12,247 nt of DNA from Candidatus Heimdallarchaeota archaeon B3_Heim. Its GTDB lineage: Archaea; Asgardarchaeota; Heimdallarchaeia; Hodarchaeales; Hodarchaeaceae. Position 1 is the first letter of the stretch. Each line of letters opens with the position of its first letter. Made by a program: the position numbers and the translations under genes. The notes under the pieces are model-generated. The model was not told the origin of the DNA. It searched no databases and worked only from the letters and a program-made list of their open reading frames with translations. Below are positions 734 through 12,044 of the stretch, one piece after another. The stretch covers positions 1-12,247 of the forward strand of contig NJBF01000070.1 in assembly GCA_003144275.1 (NCBI GenBank), in the 5' to 3' direction.

Positions 734-1789
734 ATGGCGATTCCCCTATTCAACCTAATTTTAGCTGTTATAATTGGTTTAGCAACTGGTTTGGTTCTTC
801 AAAAAGGAAGAATTTGTGCCAATACTGCATTTCGGAATTTACTCCTAATTAAAAATTCGGAATTAGCATCAGCATTATTTGTAACCGTATTAGTGGAACT
901 AATTGGATATCAAATCCTTGAACTACTACCAGGAACCAATTTTGTATCCAATCCTATTCCGTTTTCATTTGTGCTGCTTCCTTCGGGAGCGTTTATCTTT
1001 GGAATAGGTACCGTAATAGCCGGCGGTTGTGCAGGAGGAACTTGCTATCGGATTGGAGAGGGGTCTATGAAATCATTACTAGCTTTTATCGGATTTGGTA
1101 TAGGGGTAGGGGTATTGGTGATTGATCCTTTCAAGAATATAGTCGATGGCTTACGTGCATCCACTGATTGGTCCATAAATGATCAAATTCCTTCCTTAGA
1201 AATATTCTTCCCCAGATGGGTCTGGACTGCAATAGCTATTATTCTTATGATTATTTTCGTATTTTTTCAGAAGGAAAAAACGTCTAAATTAACACATCTC
1301 AGACCTCAATGGACCCCTCTTATTTCAGGAGTTTTTTTAGGCTTCCTTGGTATTAGTGCACGCATCACTTCAACACCCACTGGCCGAGCTTTTGGATTTT
1401 CCACAACTGATGGAATTGGCGAACTTTTTCAAGCTTTAGCAGGTATACTGAATCTCGTTGATCTTGATACTATCGGATGGGCAGGCTTTTTTATTATTGG
1501 ATTAATTGGGGGTTCCTTTATTTCATCCCTTGAAACTAAAGAATTTAAAGTGAAAGTTCCAGCAGCTTGGGAGATAGTAAAATTCTCTGGTGGAGGATTT
1601 ATACTTGGTTTTGGTGCGATGCTTGCTCTAGGGTGCAACTTTAGTCATATCTTAGGAGGAATCCCTGAATTAGGAATTTCATCACTAGTCGCAACACTTC
1701 TCATGATCCTAGGTAACTGGATTGCCTCATTCATACTCTATAAACGTTTAAATCAACCAATTCCATCTTCCACACCAATTCTCCTTTAA
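734..1789 (+). CDS. yeeE: YeeE/YedE family sulfur-compound (thiosulfate-type) transporter
   Basis: 351 aa, polytopic, with two internal repeat halves. Family motifs GLVLQKGRICAN, FGIGTVIAGGCAGGTCYRIGEG and GFGAMLALGCNF carry Cys at the three positions conserved in YeeE transporters. Confidence 0.9.
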   Translation: MAIPLFNLILAVIIGLATGLVLQKGRICANTAFRNLLLIKNSELASALFVTVLVELIGYQILELLPGTNFVSNPIPFSFVLLPSGAFIFGIGTVIAGGCAGGTCYRIGEGSMKSLLAFIGFGIGVGVLVIDPFKNIVDGLRASTDWSINDQIPSLEIFFPRWVWTAIAIILMIIFVFFQKEKTSKLTHLRPQWTPLISGVFLGFLGISARITSTPTGRAFGFSTTDGIGELFQALAGILNLVDLDTIGWAGFFIIGLIGGSFISSLETKEFKVKVPAAWEIVKFSGGGFILGFGAMLALGCNFSHILGGIPELGISSLVATLLMILGNWIASFILYKRLNQPIPSSTPILL

Positions 1790-1813
1790 TATGTTTGAGT
1801 TTAAGGAATTAAA

Positions 1814-2548
1814 ATGACTGCTAATTTTACTATGAAAGATCTGGTTGTCATTATTCCAGCACATAATGAGGAAGATACTCTTCCTTCACTACTAAGATCG
1901 ATTAGAACCTCAATTACACAGAACATAATTGTTGTCGATAATGCTTCAATAGATCAAACTAGGATCAAAGCACAGAAGGAGGGGGCAACTGTTATTGTCG
2001 AAAAGCGTCTAGGTTACGGTAATGCTTGTCTCGCAGGAATTAATTATTTACGTTCACTTCCGAAAATACCTAGAGTTGTCTGTTTTTTCGATGGGGATGG
2101 ACAAAGTATTGTAGACGATATTCAACAGGTTGCCCGAGTAGTTTTCGAAGGTAGAGTGGAATATTGTCAAGGAACCAGAATGATCCAAAAATCTTCAAGA
2201 AATAGGCTAGGAACATTGGCACGCATAGCAAATCGTTTTTATTCTTATATTCTCTCTGTAACCTATCGACAGCATATTACAGATCTTGGTCCTCTTCGAA
2301 TTGTCACGTGGAAGACATTACAAAGGCTTGATATGAAAACTCCTAGTTATGGATGGACTATGGAGATGTCGTCCAAAATTCTCAAAGCAGGTATTACCCA
2401 TGCTGAAATCCCAGTCAGATATTTTCAACGTACCAAGGGAAAAAGTAAAATTTCTGGAAATACTGGAAGTGCTATCAAAGCTGCACTGGTTATGACTTTT
2501 ACTTATATTAGAGTACTCTTTTTCTGGAGGCCTTTTCATCGTCAATAA
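1814..2548 (+). CDS. Glycosyltransferase family 2, polyprenol-phosphate-sugar (DPM) synthase-like
   Basis: VIIPAHNEE, VVDNASID, GYGNAC, DxD motif FFDGDG, ITDLGP, YGWTMEM, EIPVRY and GKSKISG. AAGGA RBS just upstream of ATG 1814. Confidence 0.92.
   Translation: MTANFTMKDLVVIIPAHNEEDTLPSLLRSIRTSITQNIIVVDNASIDQTRIKAQKEGATVIVEKRLGYGNACLAGINYLRSLPKIPRVVCFFDGDGQSIVDDIQQVARVVFEGRVEYCQGTRMIQKSSRNRLGTLARIANRFYSYILSVTYRQHITDLGPLRIVTWKTLQRLDMKTPSYGWTMEMSSKILKAGITHAEIPVRYFQRTKGKSKISGNTGSAIKAALVMTFTYIRVLFFWRPFHRQ
2526..2530 (+). promoter_or_regulatory. Shine-Dalgarno GGAGG for the DUF2064 gene, lying inside the 3' end of the GT2 gene
   Basis: GGAGG at 2526-2530 is 7 nt before an in-frame ATC (2538) and 10 nt before an in-frame GTC (2541). 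Confidence 0.55.
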
Positions 2549-3302
2549 CAATACAATTGGACTTATTGTCTTTACTAAAGTTCCACAACCTGGGTTCGTA
2601 AAAACTCGCCTCAAACACCCCTTATTCTCACCTGACTTTCCCTCACAATTGCAGGTTGCAATGTTATTAGACACAATTATGGGATTAAAATTCATCCCAG
2701 AAAAATTTGTCCCTGTGATCACTTATTATCCAGAACATGCTAATTCAACGTTTGAAGAGCTGATCATTGACCCTCTTATCCATGATAATTCAGAATTTGT
2801 GTCGTCACTTCATTTTGTTCCCCAGATTGGACAAAAATTTACTGATCGGTTTAAAAACGCTTTTAAATATGTTTTCCAAGATCTTAAATTGTCTTCAGCA
2901 TTGATTATAGGTTCAGATACACCACACATTCAACCATCTCTTTTACTGACGGCCATCCACATTTTGCAGGAGAATAGTCAGAATTCTGTTTTAGGACCGT
3001 CACAAGAAGGAGGTTTTTACTTGCTCGGTCATAATGAGCCTTATCTTGAGAATATTGATTCTATTTTTCATCAAAATAATTCCTATAAAGAGCTTGGAAA
3101 TGCAATGGATCTCCTGTTAAATGTTACAGACGTACACATATTACCTGAAGTTACTGATGTTGATCAATTTGAAGATTTGAAAACGGTCCGTTCTATTATT
3201 AAGATATTGTCATTTAATTATGAAAGGGGAAAAATAGAATATTTTCCCGAACACACATTTAAACTCATTGACTCAGTAGCACCCAATATCTGGGTTTCCT
3301 AG
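2538..3302 (+). CDS. TIGR04282/DUF2064 family (CofC-like GT-A fold) transferase, the family annotated as arsenosugar-biosynthesis / rSAM-selenodomain-associated transferase; start uncertain
   Basis: The family N-terminal signature GLIVFTKVPQPGFVKTRL is encoded in frame at about 2559-2612, upstream of the ORF-track start (TTG 2649). Other motifs: QIGQKFTDRFKNAF, LIIGSDTP, VLGPSQEGGFYLLG, TDVDQFEDL. The frame is open back to a TGA at 2493 with no ATG/GTG/TTG before 2649. Confidence 0.88.
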   Translation: MVNNNTIGLIVFTKVPQPGFVKTRLKHPLFSPDFPSQLQVAMLLDTIMGLKFIPEKFVPVITYYPEHANSTFEELIIDPLIHDNSEFVSSLHFVPQIGQKFTDRFKNAFKYVFQDLKLSSALIIGSDTPHIQPSLLLTAIHILQENSQNSVLGPSQEGGFYLLGHNEPYLENIDSIFHQNNSYKELGNAMDLLLNVTDVHILPEVTDVDQFEDLKTVRSIIKILSFNYERGKIEYFPEHTFKLIDSVAPNIWVS

Positions 3303-3336
3303 GTCTAAATCGCTAAATATTATATGTGTTTAGACA

Positions 3337-4152
3337 CTAGGTAACATCAACTAGGGAATCTATTCTTTCAATTGAATCGTGAATGCTTTTTACTCCATCT
3401 ATAGAAAGTGATATGGCATTCTCAGGGCATAAAATAACACATCTCCCACATCCTCTACAAGCTTCACTTATGACAGATTTTCCATCAACTACTTCAATCG
3501 CTTTGACAAAACAGACGTCAACACAGGTGCCACATCCGATACAATTGTCATCTACAGATACTGTTACTCCTGGCATCTTGGTTATTTTTGAAGATATTTT
3601 ACTTGATACATGAGGAAGTATTCGCCATAAACAACAACAATCACAGCAGTTACAAATTGTGAGCAACTTTTCACCTGGACCGACCTTCAACCAGACTGTA
3701 TCGAGTTTGTTTCTCCCGATCAAATGAACTAAACCCGCATCTCGACATTTTCGAACGTGATCAAGTGCTTCTTCCTTTGTCACTTTTCTTCCGAGATTTT
3801 TATCAATTTTCATAGCTGCTTCCCCTAGAAACAAACACCCCAATTCAATGGGATAATGATCACACTTTGATGCTGATCGACATATACACCAATCCATGAT
3901 AAAATGGTAGTTTGCTTCTTCCACAAAGTGCTCTACAATTTTCGAAGGTACAATCGTTTCTCCGTGTCGCTCTATTGGCTTATTTATTTGAACCGTACTA
4001 TCGTCTTTTGGCAAATATAGAATATCATCACCATCAAACATCATATAATCCAAAGCTCGCCCCAAGAGGGGGACACGAGTAAATTTTGATAAGAAACTTC
4101 TAAGTGGAAACCCCTTTTTTAATAACCAAATGAATAATCTTGATCTAGGCAT
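3337..4152 (-). CDS. Cys-rich 4Fe-4S dicluster (ferredoxin-domain) protein
   Basis: Two C-terminal ferredoxin motifs ([23 protein letters not shown]) plus CICRxxxxC...GC and CNCCDCCC; 19 Cys in 271 aa. Confidence 0.88.
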
Positions 4153-4390
4153 AATGCTGAACCGTCACTTACACAAATCGAACGCAATGAGCACTTTCGA
4201 ATTAAATATATTACTATAATCGCAGGTTTTTCTAATTTAACCGTAGTTTATACGTCTTTTCGTCTTCCGTAAAGAAGCCTTATTATTTTTTCTAATTTAC
4301 ATATTTTACAAACGGTTCACTTTCAGAAAAATTCTGGAGTGGGATGTTTTCTCTCAAACTAATTTATAGGAATTAAGTGTAGGTTATTGG

Positions 4391-5827
4391 ATGCAAATTC
4401 CACTTGGGGTATTAATCTGGATGATGAGTGGGTTCTTTTTCCTTCTCAGTTCGAGCTATTACATCCTAGAGATGATACCTTCATTTCTTCGTCATAGAAA
4501 AGATTATCTTAATCCGAATATCCCTTCTAATCAAGAAATACTTTCTTTACTTAGCCAAACAGATCAACCTTTTCCCAAAATAAAATTTCAAATTACAACA
4601 CGAGGGAACGAGATTGATGTAGTCAAAAGGGGAATTGCTAGTATATATACAGTATCAAGTGGTAATCAATTATTTGAATCAAATTTTGAGCTACTAGTTG
4701 TGACAGATAATCCTGAGGAAACAAAAATTTTTACTGATTTTTTCAAGGAACTGCATGATTTATTCCCTTCAGAAGCGATCGTAGTTCCGCCAGAATATCG
4801 AACTCCTAATTCAACACTTTATAAGGCAAGAAGTCTGCAATATTCAGTAGAATATAGAAAATCCAAAAAGTCTTCTTCAATGAAAGGCAGGCCAAGGTCA
4901 TTTATTTTCTATTTTGACGCAGAATCGACTATCAAGGGAGAAGATTTTCGAAGAATTATTCATTCAGTCATTTCTTTCCCTGATAAAAAAGTATTCGAAG
5001 GTCCTATTGTCTATCCGCATAAATACTTTAAGGCCAACGTATTTAGTCGGCAAATGGAAGCCTCACGTCCATTTAATTGCCACCATTGCGCACACGTGAT
5101 GAAAAACCCCCCTCCTACACACTTACACGGTTCTAACCTGCTGGTTGATGAGGAAATCGTGAATGAAATTGGCTGGGACTTTGGAAGAGTTGATAATAGA
5201 CCTCTACTTGCTGAGGATTTAATTTTTGGACTTAATGTGTATGTGAAGTATGGTGGAAGCCCTTTTGGTTGGCACGGAGGCCGTTTATCCGAGCAACCGC
5301 CATTCTCAATTCGTTCTTCTTTTAATGCACGAACTCGCTGGGTAACAGGAGCGTGGCAGGCATTAAAACTCCTTAAAAAGTCACCTGAGTTTAAAAAACT
5401 CTCTTGGCAACAACAAATGTCGATCAAACTACGAATTAGATTACGTATCATGACACATTCTCTCAGCTTCTTCGCGACAAGCTTTGTAATCCTTAGTTTG
5501 GCCATATTCCTCTTTCCTTCATTTTTCTTATCATTTCAAATTAATTCTGAACTATTATCGCCATCTTTTAGAACTGCGCAATTTCTCTTAACCCGTTTCA
5601 TTTTTCTACCTGGTACACTTCTTTGGTTTTTTGGAATTTACATAGGTTCTTTAAAGAATTTAGAATTGATAGAGGAGATTTCCCAAAAAGATAAAATCAT
5701 TGAGATTATCAAGCTATTAATCATAACCCCCTTAGCAGGACCTATTGAATCTTTCAGTGCTCTATATGCCTCAATCCGATGGCTTATTGGAAAACCTTAC
5801 AACTCGTGGGCAGTCACTTCAAAATAG
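4391..5827 (+). CDS. Membrane-bound GT2 glycosyltransferase, Egghead/BRE-3 (beta-1,4-mannosyltransferase)-like
   Basis: One N-terminal TM and several C-terminal TMs. Motifs ITTRG, LLVVTD, IVVPPEYRTPNSTLYKARSLQY, FYFDAES, HGSNLLV, LAED and EQPPFS...ARTRWVTG correspond to the D, D, ED, QxxRW-like set of processive-type GT2s. Confidence 0.8.
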   Translation: MQIPLGVLIWMMSGFFFLLSSSYYILEMIPSFLRHRKDYLNPNIPSNQEILSLLSQTDQPFPKIKFQITTRGNEIDVVKRGIASIYTVSSGNQLFESNFELLVVTDNPEETKIFTDFFKELHDLFPSEAIVVPPEYRTPNSTLYKARSLQYSVEYRKSKKSSSMKGRPRSFIFYFDAESTIKGEDFRRIIHSVISFPDKKVFEGPIVYPHKYFKANVFSRQMEASRPFNCHHCAHVMKNPPPTHLHGSNLLVDEEIVNEIGWDFGRVDNRPLLAEDLIFGLNVYVKYGGSPFGWHGGRLSEQPPFSIRSSFNARTRWVTGAWQALKLLKKSPEFKKLSWQQQMSIKLRIRLRIMTHSLSFFATSFVILSLAIFLFPSFFLSFQINSELLSPSFRTAQFLLTRFIFLPGTLLWFFGIYIGSLKNLELIEEISQKDKIIEIIKLLIITPLAGPIESFSALYASIRWLIGKPYNSWAVTSK

Positions 5828-5836
5828 GCGAAAATC

Positions 5837-7231
5837 GTGTTGAACCTTAGAAAATTCTGGGATGCAGAAGAATCTAAGCTATATGGGGTGAAGAATCATT
5901 TGAATCTTAAGGGAAGTGTTCTGTTACTGATAGGAGGATGTTTGTTACTTCTCTCTATACTCATTTTAATATCTAAAACAGGTTTAGATCGCTCAACGCT
6001 TATATTTGAACTAGTGTTTTTTTTACCATTCTCAATTTATCTGATGATTATAATTTCAACAAAACATTTCAAATTAGATACTAAACAATATTTCTTACCA
6101 GTAGTTGTACTCTTTGCTTTCTTAATCCAAATTATTGTTCTAACTACCGAAATTACCCTATCAGATGATCTCTATCGCTATTTTCTTGAAGGAAAAATGT
6201 TTTTAAACGGATTAAATCCATATTTGACCTCATTAGATAATGTTCCAAGTAACTTCACTAGTGAATTCTTACCTTTAGTCAACAATAGCCATATCACATC
6301 ACCCTATCCTCCTCTTGCAATATTACTCTTCGCAATTTTATCGTGGATCTGGGAAGATCCGCTCCTCTTCAGAATCGTTTTTTCGATATCATTTATTCTG
6401 TCAATCGTATCATTAGATAAGCTATTATTAGTAAAACACAGATGGAAACTCGTTGTTTTTGCGTGGAATCCACTATTTCATCTTGAAACAGGCAACGGGT
6501 CGCATTTTGAAGCTTTAATTGTGTTACTCATAATTTTCGCTTTGTTAAATTTAGAACAGAATAGGAGAGGTTTAGCAAGCATTACGTTATTGGCGACTTT
6601 CTTCTTAAAATATTACAGTATCTTTCTAATTCCTCTATTTTGGAAACGTTTAGGAAAGAATGGACAGAGAATTTTCTCGATAGGTATGTTAGGATATGTA
6701 ACTTGGATTTTTTTAAATCCTTCACTGATTACAGGCTTATTAACCTTCGCGGGTGAGTGGTACTTTAATGCGAGTACAATTTGGGTCCTTTTTGAACTTA
6801 CATCTTCCTTTTTTCTAGCCAAACTTATAGCAGGGTCAATTTTCATTATCATTTTAATTGTAATCTTATTTAAAGCACAAAAATACGAAAACATACCTTA
6901 CATGTATGCAGGAGTTATCATCGGCCTGTTCTTACTATTACAACCTACATTTCATCCTTGGTATCTTTTTTGGCTATTCCCCTTTATCTTACTGGAGAAA
7001 GATACAATTCCATGGAGCTGGATTATTCTATCAGGCTTAATCATTTTTTCGTACAACGTATATATCCAATTTGATACAGTTAACGTTTGGAATGAACTGA
7101 TTTTAGTACGCATAATTGAATATGTACCATTTTACTCTCTCTTTCTGTATGAAAATAGAATGGACATTTTCACCCAAATAAAAATTTTAAAATCTTATTT
7201 AAATAAAAGAAGAGGGATTTTTCCCTCCTGA
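5837..7231 (+). CDS. GT-C fold polyprenol-phosphate-sugar-dependent glycosyltransferase (GT87/DUF2029-like)
   Basis: About 10 or more TM segments. First-loop motif SDDLYRY...GLNPY, then SPYPP, AWNPLFHLETGNGSHFE and FHPWY. GTG start 9 nt after the upstream stop. Confidence 0.82.
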   Translation: MLNLRKFWDAEESKLYGVKNHLNLKGSVLLLIGGCLLLLSILILISKTGLDRSTLIFELVFFLPFSIYLMIIISTKHFKLDTKQYFLPVVVLFAFLIQIIVLTTEITLSDDLYRYFLEGKMFLNGLNPYLTSLDNVPSNFTSEFLPLVNNSHITSPYPPLAILLFAILSWIWEDPLLFRIVFSISFILSIVSLDKLLLVKHRWKLVVFAWNPLFHLETGNGSHFEALIVLLIIFALLNLEQNRRGLASITLLATFFLKYYSIFLIPLFWKRLGKNGQRIFSIGMLGYVTWIFLNPSLITGLLTFAGEWYFNASTIWVLFELTSSFFLAKLIAGSIFIIILIVILFKAQKYENIPYMYAGVIIGLFLLLQPTFHPWYLFWLFPFILLEKDTIPWSWIILSGLIIFSYNVYIQFDTVNVWNELILVRIIEYVPFYSLFLYENRMDIFTQIKILKSYLNKRRGIFPS

Positions 7232-7239
7232 GATTCATC

Positions 7240-7743
7240 TTAGATAATAAATTTCACGAGATTATCTGGGATTCTATCTTTTAACCAGTAATCCACACCA
7301 TACCATTTTCCAGCGCTTATTAAAGCACAGGTAATAAACCCTACAAATAATAATGGCTGCGTCCAGATCCATTCAACACCTAACGAACCTAAACCCAGTA
7401 CAATTGTGGAACCAGCGCCTATTACTGACCCGAGTCTAGTCAAAACTCCAAAAATTAGTGATAATGATATTAATAATTCAATAATCATCCATCCGAATCC
7501 AAACAGGGCAGCATTTGGAAATGCAAAATCTCGGATTATAGTATCAATAGGTGTAGCAATATGATCGGGATGATCAATGAAATAACTAATGGTACCAATA
7601 AAGCCTGAGCTTGTAAAAGCGCCTTTGCTAAGATTACTTATCCAAGTTGTTAAGAAGGCAAAGCCCAGAAAAAATCGCAAGATTACAATATATCCTCCAG
7701 AAATTTTCTGTTCGTGCATTTTTCGAATTACTTCACGATTCAT
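7240..7743 (-). CDS. DoxX / TQO small subunit DoxD-like membrane protein
   Basis: ILRFFLGFAFL...K, IELLISLSLIFGVLTRLG and AGKWYGVD match the DoxX/DoxD pattern (LR..lG..F, E...G..l..G..TR, aG...glD). AGGAG RBS 8 nt upstream of the ATG. Confidence 0.8.
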   Translation of the reverse strand: MNREVIRKMHEQKISGGYIVILRFFLGFAFLTTWISNLSKGAFTSSGFIGTISYFIDHPDHIATPIDTIIRDFAFPNAALFGFGWMIIELLISLSLIFGVLTRLGSVIGAGSTIVLGLGSLGVEWIWTQPLLFVGFITCALISAGKWYGVDYWLKDRIPDNLVKFII

Positions 7744-7890
7744 TATTAATTCTCCTTTACTTTTTGAGGATAATGAATTGAGATCTATTTATGATTATGC
7801 CTCGAAAGATTGGAAATCAAGCCACTGAAACCGTAGAGACTTACATAATCTATAATTGACTATTTTTTTCAGAATGTAAATCATAGAATT

Positions 7891-7908
7891 CGAAAATAAA
7901 CATTTAAA
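7891..7908 (+). promoter_or_regulatory. Putative archaeal promoter (A-rich BRE-like tract plus TTTAAA TATA box) for the methyltransferase-rSAM operon
   Basis: CGAAAATAAACATTTAAA with TTTAAA at 7903-7908, followed by RBS AGGAG at 7949-7953, 9 nt before GTG 7963. Confidence 0.5.
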
Positions 7909-7962
7909 GCAGCATGAAATCTGCCAAGCTTTGTCTGCTCTTGTCAGTAGGAGTAACTTGAA

Positions 7963-8754
7963 GTGAATTTTCGATACGATTTTACGGTAAAAGATGTCCA
8001 GGATGCTTATGATGGCGCCGTAGGAATCTTATGGGAGGTATTAATGGGAGAACACATTCATATTGGAGGAGAAAAAGAGACCCAGAGATTAGCAGAGAAA
8101 TTGGGAGTAAGAGATACTTATATCCTAGATATATGCTCAGCTCTCGGTGGTCCTTCGAGATACTTGGCAAAAACCTTCAATGCGACGGTACTTGGTGTAG
8201 ACATAACAAAAACAATGTTAGATAAAGCAACTGCTCGAACCCTAAAAGAAGGGTTACAAAATAAGGTAGAATTTCGGAGAGGGAACGCTTTGGATTTACC
8301 AGTAAGTAGTAACAGTATGGATATTGTTTGGGGACAGGATGCCTGGTGTTATGTAACCGACAAGGCACGATTAATACAAGAAGCTGTTAGAGTCTGCAAA
8401 CCTGGAGGAAAAATAGGCTTTACAGATTGGATTTTAGGTTCCACTCCACTTTCACAAGAAGAAGCAGATTTTCTTTATGAATTCATGATTTTCCCTAATT
8501 TAGAAACTCTTGACGGTTATAAGTTGCTCTTAGAGGATAACAAATGTCAAATACTGGAAATAGAAAATCTTCAGGAAGATTTTGCTACTCATATGAAGTA
8601 TTATTATGACAAAATTCAAGAGATGCGAGATTCTATTATTCAAGAATTTGGGTCAGATTTGTACCAAATTGCAGAAGCGGGAGTTAAGGCATGGAAGGCC
8701 GCTTCTGAGCAAGGAAAAGTAACGCGGGGTTTATGGATTGCAGAAAAAATTTAA
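7963..8754 (+). CDS. Class I SAM-dependent methyltransferase (sarcosine/dimethylglycine- or phosphoethanolamine-N-methyltransferase-like fold; substrate unknown)
   Basis: MGEHIHIGG, motif I variant ILDICSALGGPSRYLA, GVDIT, GNALDLP...DIVWGQDAWCYV, VCKPGGKIGFTDW. Good RBS upstream. Confidence 0.88.
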   Translation: MNFRYDFTVKDVQDAYDGAVGILWEVLMGEHIHIGGEKETQRLAEKLGVRDTYILDICSALGGPSRYLAKTFNATVLGVDITKTMLDKATARTLKEGLQNKVEFRRGNALDLPVSSNSMDIVWGQDAWCYVTDKARLIQEAVRVCKPGGKIGFTDWILGSTPLSQEEADFLYEFMIFPNLETLDGYKLLLEDNKCQILEIENLQEDFATHMKYYYDKIQEMRDSIIQEFGSDLYQIAEAGVKAWKAASEQGKVTRGLWIAEKI

Positions 8755-8768
8755 CGGAAGAAACAAAA

Positions 8769-9833
8769 ATGTATGATGAACCGAATTCTGCATTCCTTCA
8801 TGGAGGAATGTCATCGGAGACTCTGATTCAGAAGAAATACTTTAATGAGGGCTTGATATATACTTTGCAGATCGAATCAACCCTTAAATGTGCACAGGGT
8901 TGTTCATATTGTTACGCAGAATCTACACCATCCAGTTCTGAACTTTTGGAATCAGAAAAAATCAAAAAAATTATTGATGAAGCTACCGAAATCAAAGTTC
9001 GATGTATCGATTGGCTAGGGGGTGATCCTCTGGTCCGAAAAGACTGGTATGACCTACTGTTATACTCACAAGAAAAAGGGCTAATTAATAATATTTGGAC
9101 CTCTGGAATTCCTTTAAAGAATGAGGAAATTGCAAAAAAAGCTATCACTGTTACACAAAACGGAGGTTTTATTTCTGTACACCTCGATTCACTTAATCCT
9201 GACGTCTACAAGCAGGTTCATAAGTATAGGGTCGAAGAGAATATTGAGGCTATCATCAAAGGAATAGATAATATTCTGTCTCTAGGTAAAGATCCAAAGG
9301 AAATCTGGAATTGTATCACGTTAACAAACCCAGTGGCAGTTAGTGATGTCTATGAAACCATGGCCTGGTTTTGGAATGAAAAGAATATAAGAACTGTTCT
9401 CACTCTCTATAATCCAGTGGCAAGCTCTGACCCTCGTGATGAGCTAGTCCCCTCCAATGGATTAATTCAAAAAGCTTATCAAGGTCGGGACGAAATTATG
9501 TATGGGGATGACCTATCTTTCTCCACAATGGATGTTAATAAATTCTATTGCGGAAGTATGATTTGTATTACAAATGATGGTTACTATACACCCTGCAGCG
9601 TCATCCGTACAAAAGAATTCGGAAATCATAAGAATTTAAGTTTAATAGAACTTCTGGAAGAAAATCCTGGAGATATCTTAATGAAACAGCTTCGGGATCC
9701 AAATAATTTACCCGAACCATGTTCAAATTGTGACCAAAATGAAGTTTGCTTTGGTTGTCGATCTTCTGCTTACTACTACTCTGGAGATATGTTTGGGTGT
9801 GATCCCAAATGCTCTAAATGTAATCCAAGCTGA
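8769..9833 (+). CDS. Radical SAM enzyme with SPASM domain (NirJ/AhbD/PqqE-like architecture; function unknown)
   Basis: CAQGCSYC (CxxxCxxC), GGDPL, WTSG, and a SPASM Cys array: FYCGSMIC...DGYYTPC...CSNCxxxxxCFGCRSSAYYYSGDMFGCDPKC. The start may be ATG 8769 (14 nt after the upstream stop) or ATG 8733 (overlapping it). Confidence 0.92.
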   Translation: MYDEPNSAFLHGGMSSETLIQKKYFNEGLIYTLQIESTLKCAQGCSYCYAESTPSSSELLESEKIKKIIDEATEIKVRCIDWLGGDPLVRKDWYDLLLYSQEKGLINNIWTSGIPLKNEEIAKKAITVTQNGGFISVHLDSLNPDVYKQVHKYRVEENIEAIIKGIDNILSLGKDPKEIWNCITLTNPVAVSDVYETMAWFWNEKNIRTVLTLYNPVASSDPRDELVPSNGLIQKAYQGRDEIMYGDDLSFSTMDVNKFYCGSMICITNDGYYTPCSVIRTKEFGNHKNLSLIELLEENPGDILMKQLRDPNNLPEPCSNCDQNEVCFGCRSSAYYYSGDMFGCDPKCSKCNPS

Positions 9834-9875: not shown

Positions 9876-10643
9876 TTAATTTCCACCAAGCAATCTTTTG
9901 AACCAATTAGGCATTAAGTAGCCGATCATACTAGATAATCCTGCGATAGAAGCTGTTAACCAAGCTATAAAATACCAATAAGTATAACCTTCGGGAGAAA
10001 AACGATCGAGAAAGAAGAAGACAAAAACAAGAATTTCAAATACAGCTGTTAAGCTAATCATAAAAAATCCTCCTCTAGCCAACCTAGTATTCGAGTTGAT
10101 CGTTGCTTGAAATGCTTTTACTAGTAGAATTAAAAATCCGACAGTAGACACGATTACATGCCAAATAAGTAGATGAATTGATATATACTCACCAGGAAGT
10201 TCCAAAAAGGGTGCAGATTGTAACTGAAAGATAAAAATCATTAAGAAACCGAGAGTGATCCCATTTGCAAGTGTTATAACTTCTCTTAAGTTCGTAATCT
10301 TTGTATCTTCATCAAAAAAGATATCCTCGGTAAAATAATACAAGAATACATTACCTAATAATGAAAACGCATATCCAATGTTAATTCCAACGGTAGAAAT
10401 ATCGATTTGATCCCCCGTTAAGAAGTTTGTCGTTTTTGTGCTGAATAACATTAATACAGCCAAGAAATAGAAAGCGAAACTCAAGAATAGGTTTCTAGTT
10501 GCATTTTTCCTAGTACTCTTCCATTTAGAAGCAAGGTTCATTGTCAGATAAGTATACACTAGTAAAGCAGTTCCTTCAGCGATTAACGCCAAAGGAGGAA
10601 TTTCTGATATTTGTTGTTGTATTAAAAGTATTTCTGAAATCAT
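9876..10643 (-). CDS. Seven-transmembrane membrane protein (receptor-like, HisKA_7TM-type topology, no cytoplasmic output domain)
   Basis: Seven hydrophobic segments counted by eye, a basic loop (KWKSTRKNATR) after TM1, and a YLMPNWFKR C-terminal tail. 12 nt downstream of the longin-like gene with a GTGA RBS. Confidence 0.7.
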   Translation of the reverse strand: MISEILLIQQQISEIPPLALIAEGTALLVYTYLTMNLASKWKSTRKNATRNLFLSFAFYFLAVLMLFSTKTTNFLTGDQIDISTVGINIGYAFSLLGNVFLYYFTEDIFFDEDTKITNLREVITLANGITLGFLMIFIFQLQSAPFLELPGEYISIHLLIWHVIVSTVGFLILLVKAFQATINSNTRLARGGFFMISLTAVFEILVFVFFFLDRFSPEGYTYWYFIAWLTASIAGLSSMIGYLMPNWFKRLLGGN

Positions 10644-10655
10644 TTTCTTTCACTT

Positions 10656-11144
10656 TTACCATAATCCACTATCTTTGAGTTTGTCAGCTACTTTTTCCTC
10701 TTTTTTCGGGTCACAATGAATATTAGAGGTCTTTTTGATTGATTCGATATTCCTCATTATGATACGCCTGAATTCAGGAACAAGATGTTCATTCAATACT
10801 GTATCAACAATCAATTCTTTTTCTTGGTAAGAACGATAGAATGTTTCGGCATGATTATTAATTGTAACTAATGTTGGATACCAACAATCGGTATTTGCCT
10901 CGCGAGATATGGCTATCACACTGAGAATTTCTTTAGAGCCTGTTATGATAAGATTGGCTGTGTTCGTTTGAAATGATGTTAATTGGCCAATTTCAAAATC
11001 ATGAGCCATCCCTCTGAGTGCTACTAAAAATCCTCCAAAGAGGACAGAATCAGTTTTTGTATGACCAAACTCAAAGGAAGAAATAGGAATCCCCGAATCC
11101 TTATCTATAATCCATAAACCAATAAATCCTTGGGTATCTTCCAC
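10656..11144 (-). CDS. Longin/roadblock-like (profilin-like fold) domain protein
   Basis: FIGLWIIDKDSGIPI (beta-hairpin), DSVLFGGFLVALRGMAHDF (helix), GQLTSFQT..NLIIT...ILSVIAI (strands), then a helix. This is the beta-beta-alpha-beta-beta-beta-alpha-alpha order of longin domains. GAGTGA RBS precedes the GTG, and an in-frame TGA just upstream fixes the start. Confidence 0.62.
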   Translation of the reverse strand: MEDTQGFIGLWIIDKDSGIPISSFEFGHTKTDSVLFGGFLVALRGMAHDFEIGQLTSFQTNTANLIITGSKEILSVIAISREANTDCWYPTLVTINNHAETFYRSYQEKELIVDTVLNEHLVPEFRRIIMRNIESIKKTSNIHCDPKKEEKVADKLKDSGLW

Positions 11145-11292
11145 GCTTGATCACTCAGGGGAAACGGTGTAAAATCTTGAGGAGTTTGACTTTTCAACAA
11201 AATAGCTACGTATTCATTCCTCAATATCCCTTTTTAATAATTACTTTTCTAATTAAATTCTTCTTCTAGTGACACTGTCCTATCTAGATATA

Positions 11293-11315
11293 TCCTAAGA
11301 TCCTAAGAGTTATAA
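11293..11315 (+). promoter_or_regulatory. Putative promoter of the DtxR-family gene (TTATAA at 11310-11315) preceded by an 8-bp tandem repeat TCCTAAGA x2
   Basis: Direct reading of the sequence. TATA spacing favours GTG 11361 over ATG 11331 as the start. Confidence 0.4.
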
Positions 11316-11360
11316 GGTCTAATTAATCATATGACCTTACATATCTTAGATGGGATAATT

Positions 11361-12044
11361 GTGCATTTAAAACCTCATAAACTTCGAGATATTGAAGAGG
11401 AGATTATGGAAGCTCTTTTTGACCTTCAATTTTCTCTTTGTGATGATTCTCACTTGAAAATGAAACAAATTCTTGATCGCATCGGTCCTCAGGTGTCAAA
11501 GACACAACTGACGAATATTGTTCAGAGAAAACTTGAAAAACTTGGATATGTCCATTATACCCCGTACGAAGGGGTTCGTCTCACAACTGAGGGATTTGAA
11601 GTTGCACGTAAGGTTGCCCGAAATCATAGATTAGCAGAAGCGATGCTTTTTCAAATCTTTCACATGCCCTTCAAGACTATTCATGAACAAGCTTGTCTCC
11701 TAGAACATGCTATTTCCGATGAAATGGCTCAATACATTTACAAGGCGCTCCCAGAAAAGAGTACTCCATTTGGAATCATGATTCCTATGTCGGCAAATGA
11801 GGAATTTGCTTGTTCCGATCAAACTATCATAGATACTCCTAAGGGATCAAAGGTAGTTTTAACTCGTATTTCTATCCATAATTATGAAACAGCTAATCAT
11901 CTTTTCAACTATGGAATAAATGGGATAGGAGAAAAATTTCAGGTGATAAATCAAACTAAGAAAAGCGTTGTTATCAGTAATAAAGGTTCAGAGTTTACTA
12001 TTCCTCTGGATCTTGCAAAAACTCTTTATGTTGATCCAGTATAA
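11361..12044 (+). CDS. dtxR: DtxR/MntR-family metal-dependent transcriptional repressor with C-terminal FeoA-like domain
   Basis: EEEIMEAL, winged helix KLEKLGYVHYTPYEGVRLTTEG, HRLAE and HEQACLLEH (metal ligands equivalent to DtxR H79/E83/H98/C102/E105/H106), and an SH3/FeoA-like tail. The start is GTG 11361 or ATG 11331. The symbol denotes the family; the metal is unresolved. Confidence 0.9.
   Translation: MHLKPHKLRDIEEEIMEALFDLQFSLCDDSHLKMKQILDRIGPQVSKTQLTNIVQRKLEKLGYVHYTPYEGVRLTTEGFEVARKVARNHRLAEAMLFQIFHMPFKTIHEQACLLEHAISDEMAQYIYKALPEKSTPFGIMIPMSANEEFACSDQTIIDTPKGSKVVLTRISIHNYETANHLFNYGINGIGEKFQVINQTKKSVVISNKGSEFTIPLDLAKTLYVDPV

Follow-up and report, generated by a model that had tools for sequence, protein, structure and literature searches.

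Do the glycosyltransferase genes of this contig work together with the transporter, methyltransferase and radical SAM genes among them, and what would such a unit make? The stretch analysed (the window; 12,247 nucleotides) makes up the whole of a 12-kb contig from a Hodarchaeota MAG. From comparative evidence, we consider the arguments evenly balanced on the full reading that the cluster adds an unusual sugar to a membrane-anchored glycolipid or lipoglycan by way of a polyprenyl (dolichyl) phosphate carrier. So read, the cluster would share part of its course with the methylthioxylose pathway of tuberculosis bacteria and the bacterial arsenosugar pathway.

Gene content and conservation of the cluster

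All nine genes that the preliminary description had named within about 9 kb were recovered in place by Pfam and NCBIfam profile matches. The order YeeE–GT2a–DUF2064–GT2b–GT-C (a transporter, two family 2 glycosyltransferases flanking a DUF2064 protein, and a GT-C glycosyltransferase) is kept in all related genomes with DUF2064, at protein identities of 39-80%, and the core genes reappear in rearranged order in a second Heimdall family. YeeE adjoins the core in the same direction in every locus of sufficient length. Of the 12 other cluster-bearing genomes, 10 carry a YeeE ortholog and an eleventh has a remnant; 49 genomes without the cluster have none. Similarly, orthologs of the radical SAM protein (rSAM) were found in 9 of 11 DUF2064-positive genomes of the genus versus 0 of 10 DUF2064-negative ones. 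Together with the methyltransferase (MT), rSAM lies downstream of the core in seven loci; the pair is absent beside the core in three genomes (G001, G016 and G019), the last of which retains an rSAM ortholog unlinked from the cluster. The conservation of YeeE, MT and rSAM beside the glycosyltransferase core, on which the initial proposal depended, was thus observed.

The genes could also be unrelated neighbours held together by recent common ancestry, as the earlier description had partly allowed. They are arranged in several transcription units on both strands in the ORF layout of the window, and the genomes with a window-type cluster (type A) all belong to one class. However, gene order retained down to 39% identity, recurrence of the same genes, rearranged, in a second family, and phyletic co-occurrence and gene fusions make this explanation extremely unlikely. 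Because the grouping is conserved across species it is not due to chance, and the cluster conserved in Hodarchaeales very likely constitutes one functional unit. The Fe-S protein gene (3337 to 4152, reverse strand; C-terminal 2x[4Fe-4S] ferredoxin domain) is a lineage-specific insertion outside the core, present in the window and in the two relatives nearest to it but nowhere else. Its product has the ferredoxin motif alone in common with the Fe-S protein of type B loci (see below).

YeeE, a YeeE/TsuA-type thiosulfate-family transporter, is encoded by the first gene of the operon (734 to 1789, forward strand; PF04143, 192 bits). It matched the YeeE of S. thermophila (6leo/8k1r) with an E value of 4e-38, and C28, C99 and C301 are invariant in seven cluster-linked orthologs. 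DoxX, an accessory small membrane protein of the DoxX/DoxD family (7240 to 7743, reverse strand; PF07681, PF04173), follows GT-C in nine loci and, in Heimdall locus L210, adjoins YeeE with a gap of 5 nt. Both are genuine cluster partners and suggest an input of sulfur; a thiosulfate-type supply to the sugar substituent, or redox upkeep of that substituent, is plausible.

The GT2a–DUF2064 pair and the membrane glycosyltransferases

GT2a (1814 to 2548, forward strand; PF00535) resembles polyprenyl-phosphate sugar synthases of the DPM1/AglJ/PpgS/ArnC type. Its best NCBIfam matches were AglJ (93 bits) and PpgS and its best PDB relative was the Dol-P-Man synthase 5mlz, with ArnC and GtrB likewise among the relatives; it is single-copy, paralogs within the genome reaching at most 71 bits. 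The nearest named GT2a families make hexose- or HexNAc-phosphopolyprenols, and no signature of pentose specificity was found.

The DUF2064 gene (2538 to 3302, forward strand; PF09837, 65 bits) matched TIGR04282 over the full model from position 2562, with 93.6 bits against a cut-off of 134 bits. The first canonical start codon is TTG at 2649, and the real gene begins further upstream, most likely with ATC at 2538, which overlaps the GT2a stop and lies 7 nt past a GGAGG at 2526-2530. The protein is related to PDB 3cgx (E 5e-20), and the top 30 Swiss-Prot fold matches of its AF2 model (pLDDT 90) were all CofC/FbiD guanylyltransferases. This CofC-like protein is a probable nucleotidyltransferase, but it might be a glycosyltransferase instead.

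TIGR04282 genes had previously been described as defined by the company of ArsS and ArsM. In Actinomycetes, a match to the GT2a profile stands directly upstream of DUF2064 in all 20 loci examined. These actinobacterial DUF2064 proteins exceed the TIGR04282 cut-off, and their GT2 partners show the same AglJ/PpgS-like profile as GT2a of the window. Since Actinomycetes pair them with a Dol-P-synthase-like GT2, TIGR04282-type genes are not tied to ArsS alone, and the mycobacterial methylthioxylose pathway is therefore the closer analogue. The pair is conserved over two domains of life (Asgard archaea and Actinomycetes), and DUF2064-GT2 fusions exist.

GT2b (4391 to 5827, forward strand; PF13632) is an Egghead/beta-1,4-mannosyltransferase-like membrane GT2 of the Glyco_trans_2_3 family. 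Its relatives carry the JGI name egghead/beta-1,4-mannosyltransferase, and it has invariant acidic residues and an RxRW motif; solitary homologs with 33% identity occur in Nitrososphaerales. GT-C (5837 to 7231, forward strand) was placed in the GT87/MptA_B/PIG-M-like group by family-level GT87 matches and by fold, the protein itself falling below both the PF09594 and the MptB cut-offs (MptB 23 bits only). Its family comprises 12,092 representatives and has an invariant LSDD..YR..G.NPY..SPYPP block; Pfam GT87 (PF09594) was matched by 54 of 86 members. The AF2 model (pLDDT 94) matched the folds of MptB, MptA, PIG-M, ALG3 and PimE. The GT87/MptA-MptB/PimE mannosyltransferases and the eukaryotic GPI mannosyltransferase I (PIG-M), with which GT-C has in common the fold class, the acidic motif of the first loop and, presumably, lipid-linked glycan acceptors, are its top structural neighbours, yet sequence identity is only 13-16%. 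GT-C probably uses a polyprenyl-phosphate-sugar as donor, and polyprenyl-phosphate-mediated extracytoplasmic glycosylation as the general activity of the cluster is likely. A GT2 polyprenyl-phosphate-sugar synthase with an outer-face GT-C is also the arrangement of the three-component systems (GtrB/GtrA/Gtr-type GT-C; ArnC/ArnT; the pentofuranose systems of PMC11127046). However, no GtrA-like flippase was recognised within the window, and the donor route proposed here runs via DUF2064 and not via a standard nucleotide sugar or PRPP.

An ordinary Agl-type surface glycosylation module is an alternative: GT2a would make a Dol-P-hexose (AglJ/AglD-like) and GT-C, like AglS of Haloferax, would transfer that sugar outside the cell to an N-linked or S-layer glycan, the roles of DUF2064, YeeE, DoxX, MT and rSAM being unrelated or auxiliary. 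AglJ as best NCBIfam match of GT2a, Haloferax AglS at rank 30 among the fold matches of GT-C and the lack of a pentose-specific signature agree with this joint reading, which we nevertheless regard as unlikely. Against it speak a GT2a–DUF2064 pairing conserved over two domains of life, the natural fusion P0401, in which DUF2064 is joined to the GT-C family (hhalign probability 100%), and the restriction of YeeE and rSAM to cluster-bearing genomes. Moreover, Heimdall versions of the cluster enclose a methylthioadenosine phosphorylase (MTAP) and a deaminase, and neither AglB nor other agl genes were found within the window.

Exchange of modules around DUF2064

MT (7963 to 8754, forward strand), a class I SAM methyltransferase, is translationally coupled to rSAM (8733 to 9833, forward strand; PF04055; NirJ2-, AhbD- and TIGR04053-like), which has a SPASM-type C-terminus matching the SPASM region of PqqE (6c8v) and is not ArsS. 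Orthologs of both form an rSAM–MT–DUF2064–GT2 operon (type B) in Lokiarchaeota-type genomes (f14): the rSAM adjoining DUF2064 is 52% identical to that of the window, and an MT ortholog with 51% identity lies between rSAM and DUF2064 in all nine loci. The type B cassette differs in having its own TIGR04283-like soluble GT2 and a membrane protein of ~250 aa, and in lacking GT-C, the Egghead-like GT2, YeeE and DoxX. Other Asgard families possess the canonical trio of ArsS, TIGR04282 and TIGR04283, and further ones SPASM rSAM, MT, DUF2064 and a TIGR04283-like GT2. Modules are swapped around a constant DUF2064, with ArsS or SPASM rSAM plus MT on one side and TIGR04283 or GT2a plus GT-C on the other, which supports the earlier idea of a re-purposed module.

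MT and rSAM could instead tailor the acceptor or the finished glycan (e.g., by methylation, epimerisation or thioether formation), the donor being methylthioribose or 5-deoxyribose from general metabolism. The pair forms a transcription unit of its own, distal to the rest of the cluster, and is missing beside the core in the three genomes named above; SPASM enzymes are not known to act as adenosyl-transferases. On the other hand, in the f14 loci (9/9) a compact operon without GT-C or GT2b has the pair immediately ahead of DUF2064; MT and rSAM are therefore tied to the DUF2064 step and not to a particular acceptor, and the tailoring role is quite improbable.

A canonical arsenosugar or arsenolipid pathway, following the NCBI product name of TIGR04282, is very unlikely. 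Database relatives of DUF2064 carry the product name 'TIGR04282 family arsenosugar biosynthesis glycosyltransferase', MT has weak ArsM-like matches, and the bacterial arsenosugar cassette (ArsS TIGR04167, ArsM, TIGR04282 and TIGR04283) likewise unites a radical SAM enzyme, a methyltransferase, DUF2064 and a GT2. However, TIGR04282 is matched below its cut-off, the rSAM is of SPASM type, MT is non-ArsM and the GT2 is of polyprenyl-phosphate synthase type and accompanied by a GT-C. Nor did a profile search of the genome find ArsS, TIGR04283 or an arsenosugar ArsM above cut-off, a set that might have explained DUF2064 from elsewhere in the genome, and the true ArsS set in other Asgard families indicates that the window cluster is different. 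ArsS adenosylates dimethylarsenite, giving a 5'-substituted 5'-deoxyadenosine (PMC13598754). The rSAM of the window showed no relation to ArsS or to the Rv1681-like enzyme of Heimdall genomes, and adenosylation chemistry is therefore an analogy only.

Origin of the donor sugar

The preferred reading, a polyprenyl-phosphate-linked unusual sugar, would begin with a 5'-substituted 5'-deoxyadenosine, i.e., methylthioadenosine, a radical-SAM by-product or the product of MT and rSAM. Cleavage would give a 5-substituted pentose-1-phosphate, for which the MTAP of the genome could serve, and which in Heimdall relatives may fall to a dedicated in-cluster phosphorylase and an MtaD/DadD-like deaminase. 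DUF2064 would turn the sugar phosphate into a nucleotide sugar and GT2a would load the sugar onto dolichyl phosphate; after flipping, GT-C would move it to a lipid-linked glycan on the outer face, GT2b being possibly among the cytoplasmic steps that build the acceptor glycolipid. For a donor that is an adenosine-derived 5-deoxy-5-X-pentose we see about as much for as against, and that X contains sulfur is possible but rather doubtful.

In M. tuberculosis, Rv0540 is presumably a DUF2064 gene. MtxS (Rv0539) makes decaprenyl-phosphate-methylthioxylose, which is transferred by the GT-C MtxT (Rv0541c), and this donor derives from 5'-methylthioadenosine (PMC8780516, PMC12088412, PMC11127046). Methylthioxylose capping of lipoarabinomannan resembles the proposed archaeal counterpart in that a polyprenyl-phosphate-sugar synthase GT2 and a GT-C together place a 5-deoxy-5-substituted pentofuranose derived from SAM/methylthioadenosine on a lipoglycan outside the membrane (PMC8780516, PMC11127046). 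The archaeal cluster differs by the additional YeeE, DoxX, Egghead-like GT2, MT and SPASM rSAM, and no epimerase was identified. MtxT was outside the top 30 fold neighbours of its GT-C; a recurrent membrane neighbour of ~450 aa in the actinobacterial loci had no detectable relation to it.

The window cluster itself is without phosphorylase or deaminase, and its genome has one probable MTAP, unlinked to the cluster. The genome also encodes MtnA, and methylthioribose-1-phosphate therefore has its normal salvage fate. In 9 of the 20 actinobacterial loci, an MTAP homolog stands no more than 8 kb from the GT2a–DUF2064 pair; one is also found inside the Heimdall cluster L210 and another near an ArsS-type locus. 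The L210 homolog is the second MTAP copy of its genome and adjoins an MtaD/DadD-like amidohydrolase and a radical SAM gene, both of which are also present in locus L124.

Gene content, conservation and reading frames of the cluster

The window represents an entire contig (C78; 12,247 bp) of a 3.95-Mb genome that is 94% complete, and the nearest public contigs carry the labels Candidatus Hodarchaeota or Hodarchaeales MAGs. All nine genes named in the preliminary description were recovered by ORF and domain calls in the window. Seven are on the forward strand, i.e., the genes for YeeE (734-1789; PF04143), a polyprenyl-phosphate-sugar-synthase-like GT2 (GT2a, 1814-2548), DUF2064 (start placed at 2538; PF09837, below the TIGR04282 cut-off), a membrane GT2 of the Glyco_trans_2_3 type (GT2b, 4391-5827; PF13632), a GT-C protein with a GT87/MptB/PIG-M-like fold (5837-7231), a class I methyltransferase (MT, 7963-8754) and a radical SAM protein with a SPASM-type C-terminus (rSAM, 8733-9833). 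The genes for an Fe-S protein (3337-4152) and a DoxX family protein (7240-7743) are on the reverse strand. An in-genome paralog search found one copy of each cluster gene. The flanking genes, comprising an unnamed ORF (61-660), two unnamed reverse-strand ORFs of 255 and 162 aa (9876-11144) and a DtxR/FeoA-type regulator (11331-12044), had counterparts in the three closest genomes only, or in none; the flanks (61-660 and 9876-12044) lie outside the unit and do not travel with the cluster.

Within the window's genus, 11 of the 21 genomes had homologs of DUF2064, as did one of about 39 others in the class. Wherever a locus was of sufficient length, the genes for YeeE, GT2a, DUF2064, GT2b and GT-C shared one strand and were separated by short gaps only, the proteins being 39-80% identical. 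DoxX lay downstream of this core in convergent orientation in nine loci, and MT and rSAM were downstream in seven and six loci, respectively. The proposal had depended on YeeE, MT and rSAM staying beside the glycosyltransferases in related genomes, and they do so, YeeE as part of the core synteny itself, and MT and rSAM in the loci just counted. Apart from the window, only its two nearest relatives had the Fe-S gene, which is therefore an insertion splitting what is elsewhere a five-gene operon. The core recurred rearranged in a different family (genome G054, locus L055; genome G395, locus L210; and the Heimdall contig L124), with GT2a and GT-C transcribed divergently from DUF2064 and GT2b. 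Signs of decay were also observed. On contig C1 of genome G015 (L035/L051), GT2a was partial, GT2b was truncated, no GT-C gene was beside the core, and a partial rSAM gene was 1.4 Mb off; on contig C228 of genome G018 (L033/L044), the YeeE gene at the cluster was reduced to a 75-residue remnant.

The phyletic distribution followed the same pattern. Of the 12 other cluster-bearing genomes, 10 had YeeE orthologs (≥50% identity) and an 11th kept a remnant; no ortholog was present in the 49 cluster-less genomes, three of which had only ~35%-identical YeeE paralogs. Within the genus, rSAM orthologs (≥69% identity), some of them unlinked from the core, were present in nine of 11 DUF2064-positive and none of 10 DUF2064-negative genomes, and both sets of counts are drawn from related genomes and are not independent.

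The start of the DUF2064 gene required separate consideration. The TIGR04282 model match begins at 2562, the alignment with relatives begins at residue 1-2 when translation is started from 2556, and neither ATG nor GTG nor TTG occurs in frame between the TGA at 2493 and the TTG at 2649. In an alignment of nine GT2a/DUF2064 junctions (2526-2548 in the window), a conserved GGAGG was followed ~7 nt later by a putative start codon, which was ATG in L049, TTG in L048 and L054, CTG in L044 and L050, ATA-GTG in L045 and ATC in the window. Because of this conserved spacing, the lack of a canonical start in the frame and the reach of the matches, the start in the window was placed at the ATC at 2538. 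Initiation of DUF2064 thus placed appears to be near-cognate in the window (ATC), in L044 and L050 (CTG) and in L045 (ATA or GTG). Many database gene calls of the family are N-terminally truncated (213-220 aa), as would be caused by a start at a near-cognate codon. The start overlaps the last codons of GT2a, and translational coupling is therefore indicated rather than a frameshift fusion of the two genes; such a fusion was rejected, because in relatives the homologous start position is an ATG, TTG or GTG preceded by a stop codon.

Families and predicted folds of the encoded proteins

The GT2a profile matched the Dol-P-Man synthase 5mlz, ArnC and GtrB over the catalytic domain, and judged by sequence the protein is most probably a GT2-class polyprenyl-phosphate sugar synthase. 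Its in-genome paralogs scored ≤71 bits, and a GT2 phylogeny was uninformative, with the in-genome paralogs on very long branches.

The DUF2064 protein of the window scored 65.3 bits with PF09837 (gathering cut-off 25.8) and matched PDB 3cgx at E 5e-20. It reached 93.6 bits over the full TIGR04282 model, below the cut-off of 134 bits, which was passed by the proteins of the actinobacterial locus L161 (144.5 bits) and the Asgard locus L219 (184.6 bits), which is of type C as described below. In its AF2 model (pLDDT 90), the top 30 Swiss-Prot fold neighbours were all CofC/FbiD guanylyltransferases, which favours a predicted role as a nucleotidyltransferase on a phosphorylated substrate. Rv0540 of Mycobacterium tuberculosis, probably a DUF2064 gene, was not among these 30 matches, all slots being taken by CofC/FbiD, and a literature search for DUF2064 and for Rv0540 found no papers. 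DUF2064 was found naturally fused with GT2 domains, and in the protein P0401 its fusion partner is a member of the same GT-C family as the window protein (hhalign probability 100%, E 3e-60). No fusion of DUF2064 with a radical SAM domain was present among 12 long forms, which is weak evidence either way. Further contexts of DUF2064 (P0391 and P0394) were a fusion with a class I/II aminotransferase domain (PF00155) and a 1,097-aa PAS/GAF sensor protein.

The family of the GT-C protein comprises 12,092 cluster representatives, and PF09594 (GT87) was matched by 54 of 86 sampled members; the window protein itself had no PF09594 match at E 0.01 and scored 23 bits with MptB (cut-off 40), and its relatives are labelled PF26314 (MptA_B_family). 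An acidic block in the first loop was invariant. The AF2 model (pLDDT 94) matched MptB, PIG-M, ALG3 and PimE with a Foldseek probability of 1.00, the closest fold neighbours being MptB/MptA, GPI-mannosyltransferase I, ALG3 and PimE. MptB/MptA, PIG-M, ALG3 and PimE all work on lipid-linked glycans. MtxT of M. tuberculosis was not among the top 30 fold matches. GT2b is a multi-pass membrane GT2 (PF13632, 42 bits), and JGI automatic annotation gives its relatives (E 1e-95 to 1e-103) the name egghead/beta-1,4-mannosyltransferase. PDB sequence searches with the GT-C and GT2b profiles gave no match. Lone homologs of GT2b (~33% identity) occur in many Nitrososphaerales (soil Thaumarchaeota), with no other cluster genes nearby (L056-L123). 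Three-component glycosylation systems combine a polyprenyl-phosphate sugar synthase of the GT2 class with a GT-C transferase and a small flippase. GT2a and GT-C would supply the first two components, whereas no Pfam family of small GtrA/ArnEF-type flippases was found in any ORF of the window, and DoxX is a candidate four-helix flippase.

YeeE scored 192 bits with PF04143 and aligned over its full length with the YeeE of S. thermophila, with three invariant cysteines at the cysteine positions of that protein; the TsuA equivalog cut-off was not reached (197 against 400). The rSAM protein scored 63 bits with PF04055, its CX3CX2C motif was visible in the alignment with a Lokiarchaeota ortholog, and its C-terminal region (276-362) matched the TIGR04053 SPASM family and PqqE (6c8v). 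The Lokiarchaeota ortholog of MT (L126:7166-7975) contained one in-frame stop, aligned to a serine rather than a cysteine of the window MT; selenocysteine is therefore unlikely, and the stop probably reflects faulty assembly or a pseudogene in that contig.

Neighbours of DUF2064 in other genomes

The DUF2064 family is widespread. Of the genomes sampled, 42 of 301 from Asgard archaea and 84 of 201 from Actinomycetes had it, the latter count taking in the unpublished genomes G092, G067, G103 and G096, no sequence of which was analysed. Solitary DUF2064 genes in Nitrospinota and Methanobacteriota had uninformative contexts.

The Asgard genes occurred in three architectures. Besides the architecture of the window (type A), all nine loci of family f14 (type B) had the order membrane protein, rSAM, MT, DUF2064 and TIGR04283-like GT2, with the rSAM and MT being 52% and 51% identical to those of the window. 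In families f11 and f17 (type C), ArsS (398 bits) was followed by a TIGR04282 protein (185 bits) and a TIGR04283-like protein. DUF2064 is the constant element, since all three types keep it while its radical SAM and transferase neighbours are swapped. The membrane protein preceding rSAM in the nine type B loci (L211-L218 and L126) is an unnamed, tryptophan-rich, multi-pass protein of ~250 aa (A9), and an upstream Fe-S protein and a UbiE-like methyltransferase were found in eight and seven of the nine, respectively. A9 matched neither the 255-aa protein nor DoxX of the window, and the Fe-S protein of type B has only the ferredoxin motif in common with that of the window.

The arsenosugar cassette combines ArsS, ArsM, TIGR04282 and TIGR04283, and the window genome lacks ArsS, TIGR04283 and the arsenosugar ArsM. 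The best matches genome-wide were 41.5 bits for ArsS (TIGR04167; cut-off 300), 58 bits for TIGR04283 (cut-off 182) and 83 bits for the arsenosugar ArsM (NF038099; cut-off 400), so that the absence of these partners, which had not been recognisable in the window, extends to the whole genome.

In 20 of 20 Actinomycetes loci retrieved, the gene directly upstream of DUF2064 gave a full-length match to the Hodarchaeales GT2a profile (69-125 bits). This GT2 shows the same pattern of NCBIfam matches as GT2a, and its DUF2064 partner passes the TIGR04282 cut-off. In the methylthioxylose (MTX) system of M. tuberculosis, an MtxS-type GT2 may likewise stand beside a DUF2064 gene, the candidate pair being Rv0539 and Rv0540. 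With the probable MTA phosphorylase (MTAP) encoded elsewhere in the window genome (235 bits; cut-off 275) as a probe, a homolog was found ≤8 kb from the GT2a-DUF2064 pair in nine of the 20 actinobacterial loci, near one ArsS-type locus and inside the Heimdall cluster L210. The MTAP in this last cluster is a second copy in its genome (G395); its neighbours are a radical SAM gene and the gene for an MtaD/DadD-like amidohydrolase, a deaminase recruited along with MTAP, and a YeeE-DoxX pair is next to them; the same radical SAM and amidohydrolase genes were present in L124. The Heimdall radical SAM protein is not orthologous to that of the window.

Besides MTAP, the actinobacterial pair (L160-L179) often had as neighbours a methyltransferase, a membrane-anchored molybdopterin oxidoreductase (Oxidored_molyb) that is presumably YedY/MsrP-like, and a conserved protein of ~450 aa (A7) that matched nothing in Pfam or NCBIfam. 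The presence of a sulfoxide-reductase-type enzyme beside a putative thioether-sugar pathway is suggestive. A comparison of the ~450-aa protein with the window GT-C family gave no link (hhalign probability 1.5%).

A possible pathway for a modified glycolipid

MtxS (Rv0539) makes decaprenyl-phosphate-methylthioxylose, and MtxT (Rv0541c) is the GT-C that moves methylthioxylose onto lipoarabinomannan, with the donor derived from 5'-methylthioadenosine (PMC8780516, PMC12088412, PMC11127046). ArsS makes 5'-deoxy-5'-dimethylarsinoyl-adenosine (PMC13598754). The MTX and ArsS products are both 5-deoxy-5-substituted pentoses from the adenosyl part of SAM. Taken together, the results support a scheme in which an adenosine-derived pentose phosphate would be activated by DUF2064 and transferred by GT2a to give a Dol-P-sugar, from which GT-C would glycosylate a glycolipid primed by GT2b. 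The comparisons show that the genes are conserved and co-occur, how the proteins fold and are related, that the GT2a-DUF2064 pair is found in both archaea and bacteria, that relatives have recruited MTAP and a deaminase, and that fusions exist; every enzymatic step of the scheme, the identity of the sugar and of its acceptor, and the roles of YeeE, DoxX, MT and rSAM are inferred. No phosphorylase is encoded in the window's own cluster, which counts against the scheme, as does the presence of MtnA, by which methylthioribose-1-phosphate has a normal salvage route. Further weak points are that the SPASM rSAM of the window is unrelated to ArsS and that MtxT was missing from the fold neighbours of GT-C.

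A more far-reaching reading is that the Hodarchaeales make a sulfur-bearing pentose (thio- or methylthio-type, possibly seleno-) from SAM and thiosulfate imported by YeeE, by a new SPASM rSAM and MT chemistry paralleling ArsS/ArsM, and display it on a GPI/PIM-like glycolipid via Dol-P and the PIG-M/GT87-like GT-C. We consider this rather unlikely as it stands. If the reading were true, DUF2064 would be the long-sought universal activator of 5-substituted 5-deoxypentoses, common to the arsenosugar, methylthioxylose and Hodarchaeales pathways.

The kind of system is known from polyprenyl-phosphate-dependent extracytoplasmic glycosylation and from the arsenosugar and MTX cassettes. The combination of DUF2064, GT2a, a GT87-like GT-C, an Egghead-like GT2, YeeE/DoxX and a SPASM rSAM with MT in Asgard archaea is, as far as found, new, no matching architecture having been found in a literature search. 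The comparison puts DUF2064 at the hub of a modular set of genes, in which a radical-SAM- or adenosine-derived precursor would pass to DUF2064 and then to a GT2, joined in some cases by a GT-C, and it suggests a concrete testable function for DUF2064, i.e., nucleotide activation of 5-substituted pentose phosphates. For the Hodarchaeales, which are regarded as near the eukaryotic ancestor, it points to a lineage-specific envelope glycolipid pathway that draws on PIG-M/ALG3/GT87-type and Egghead-type enzymes. The cluster also bears on the question of whether MTX-type modification occurs outside lipoarabinomannan (PMC11127046). Among the sequencing runs listed, none of which was an RNA run, the DNA shares found in marine-sediment and cold-seep metagenomes were all small.
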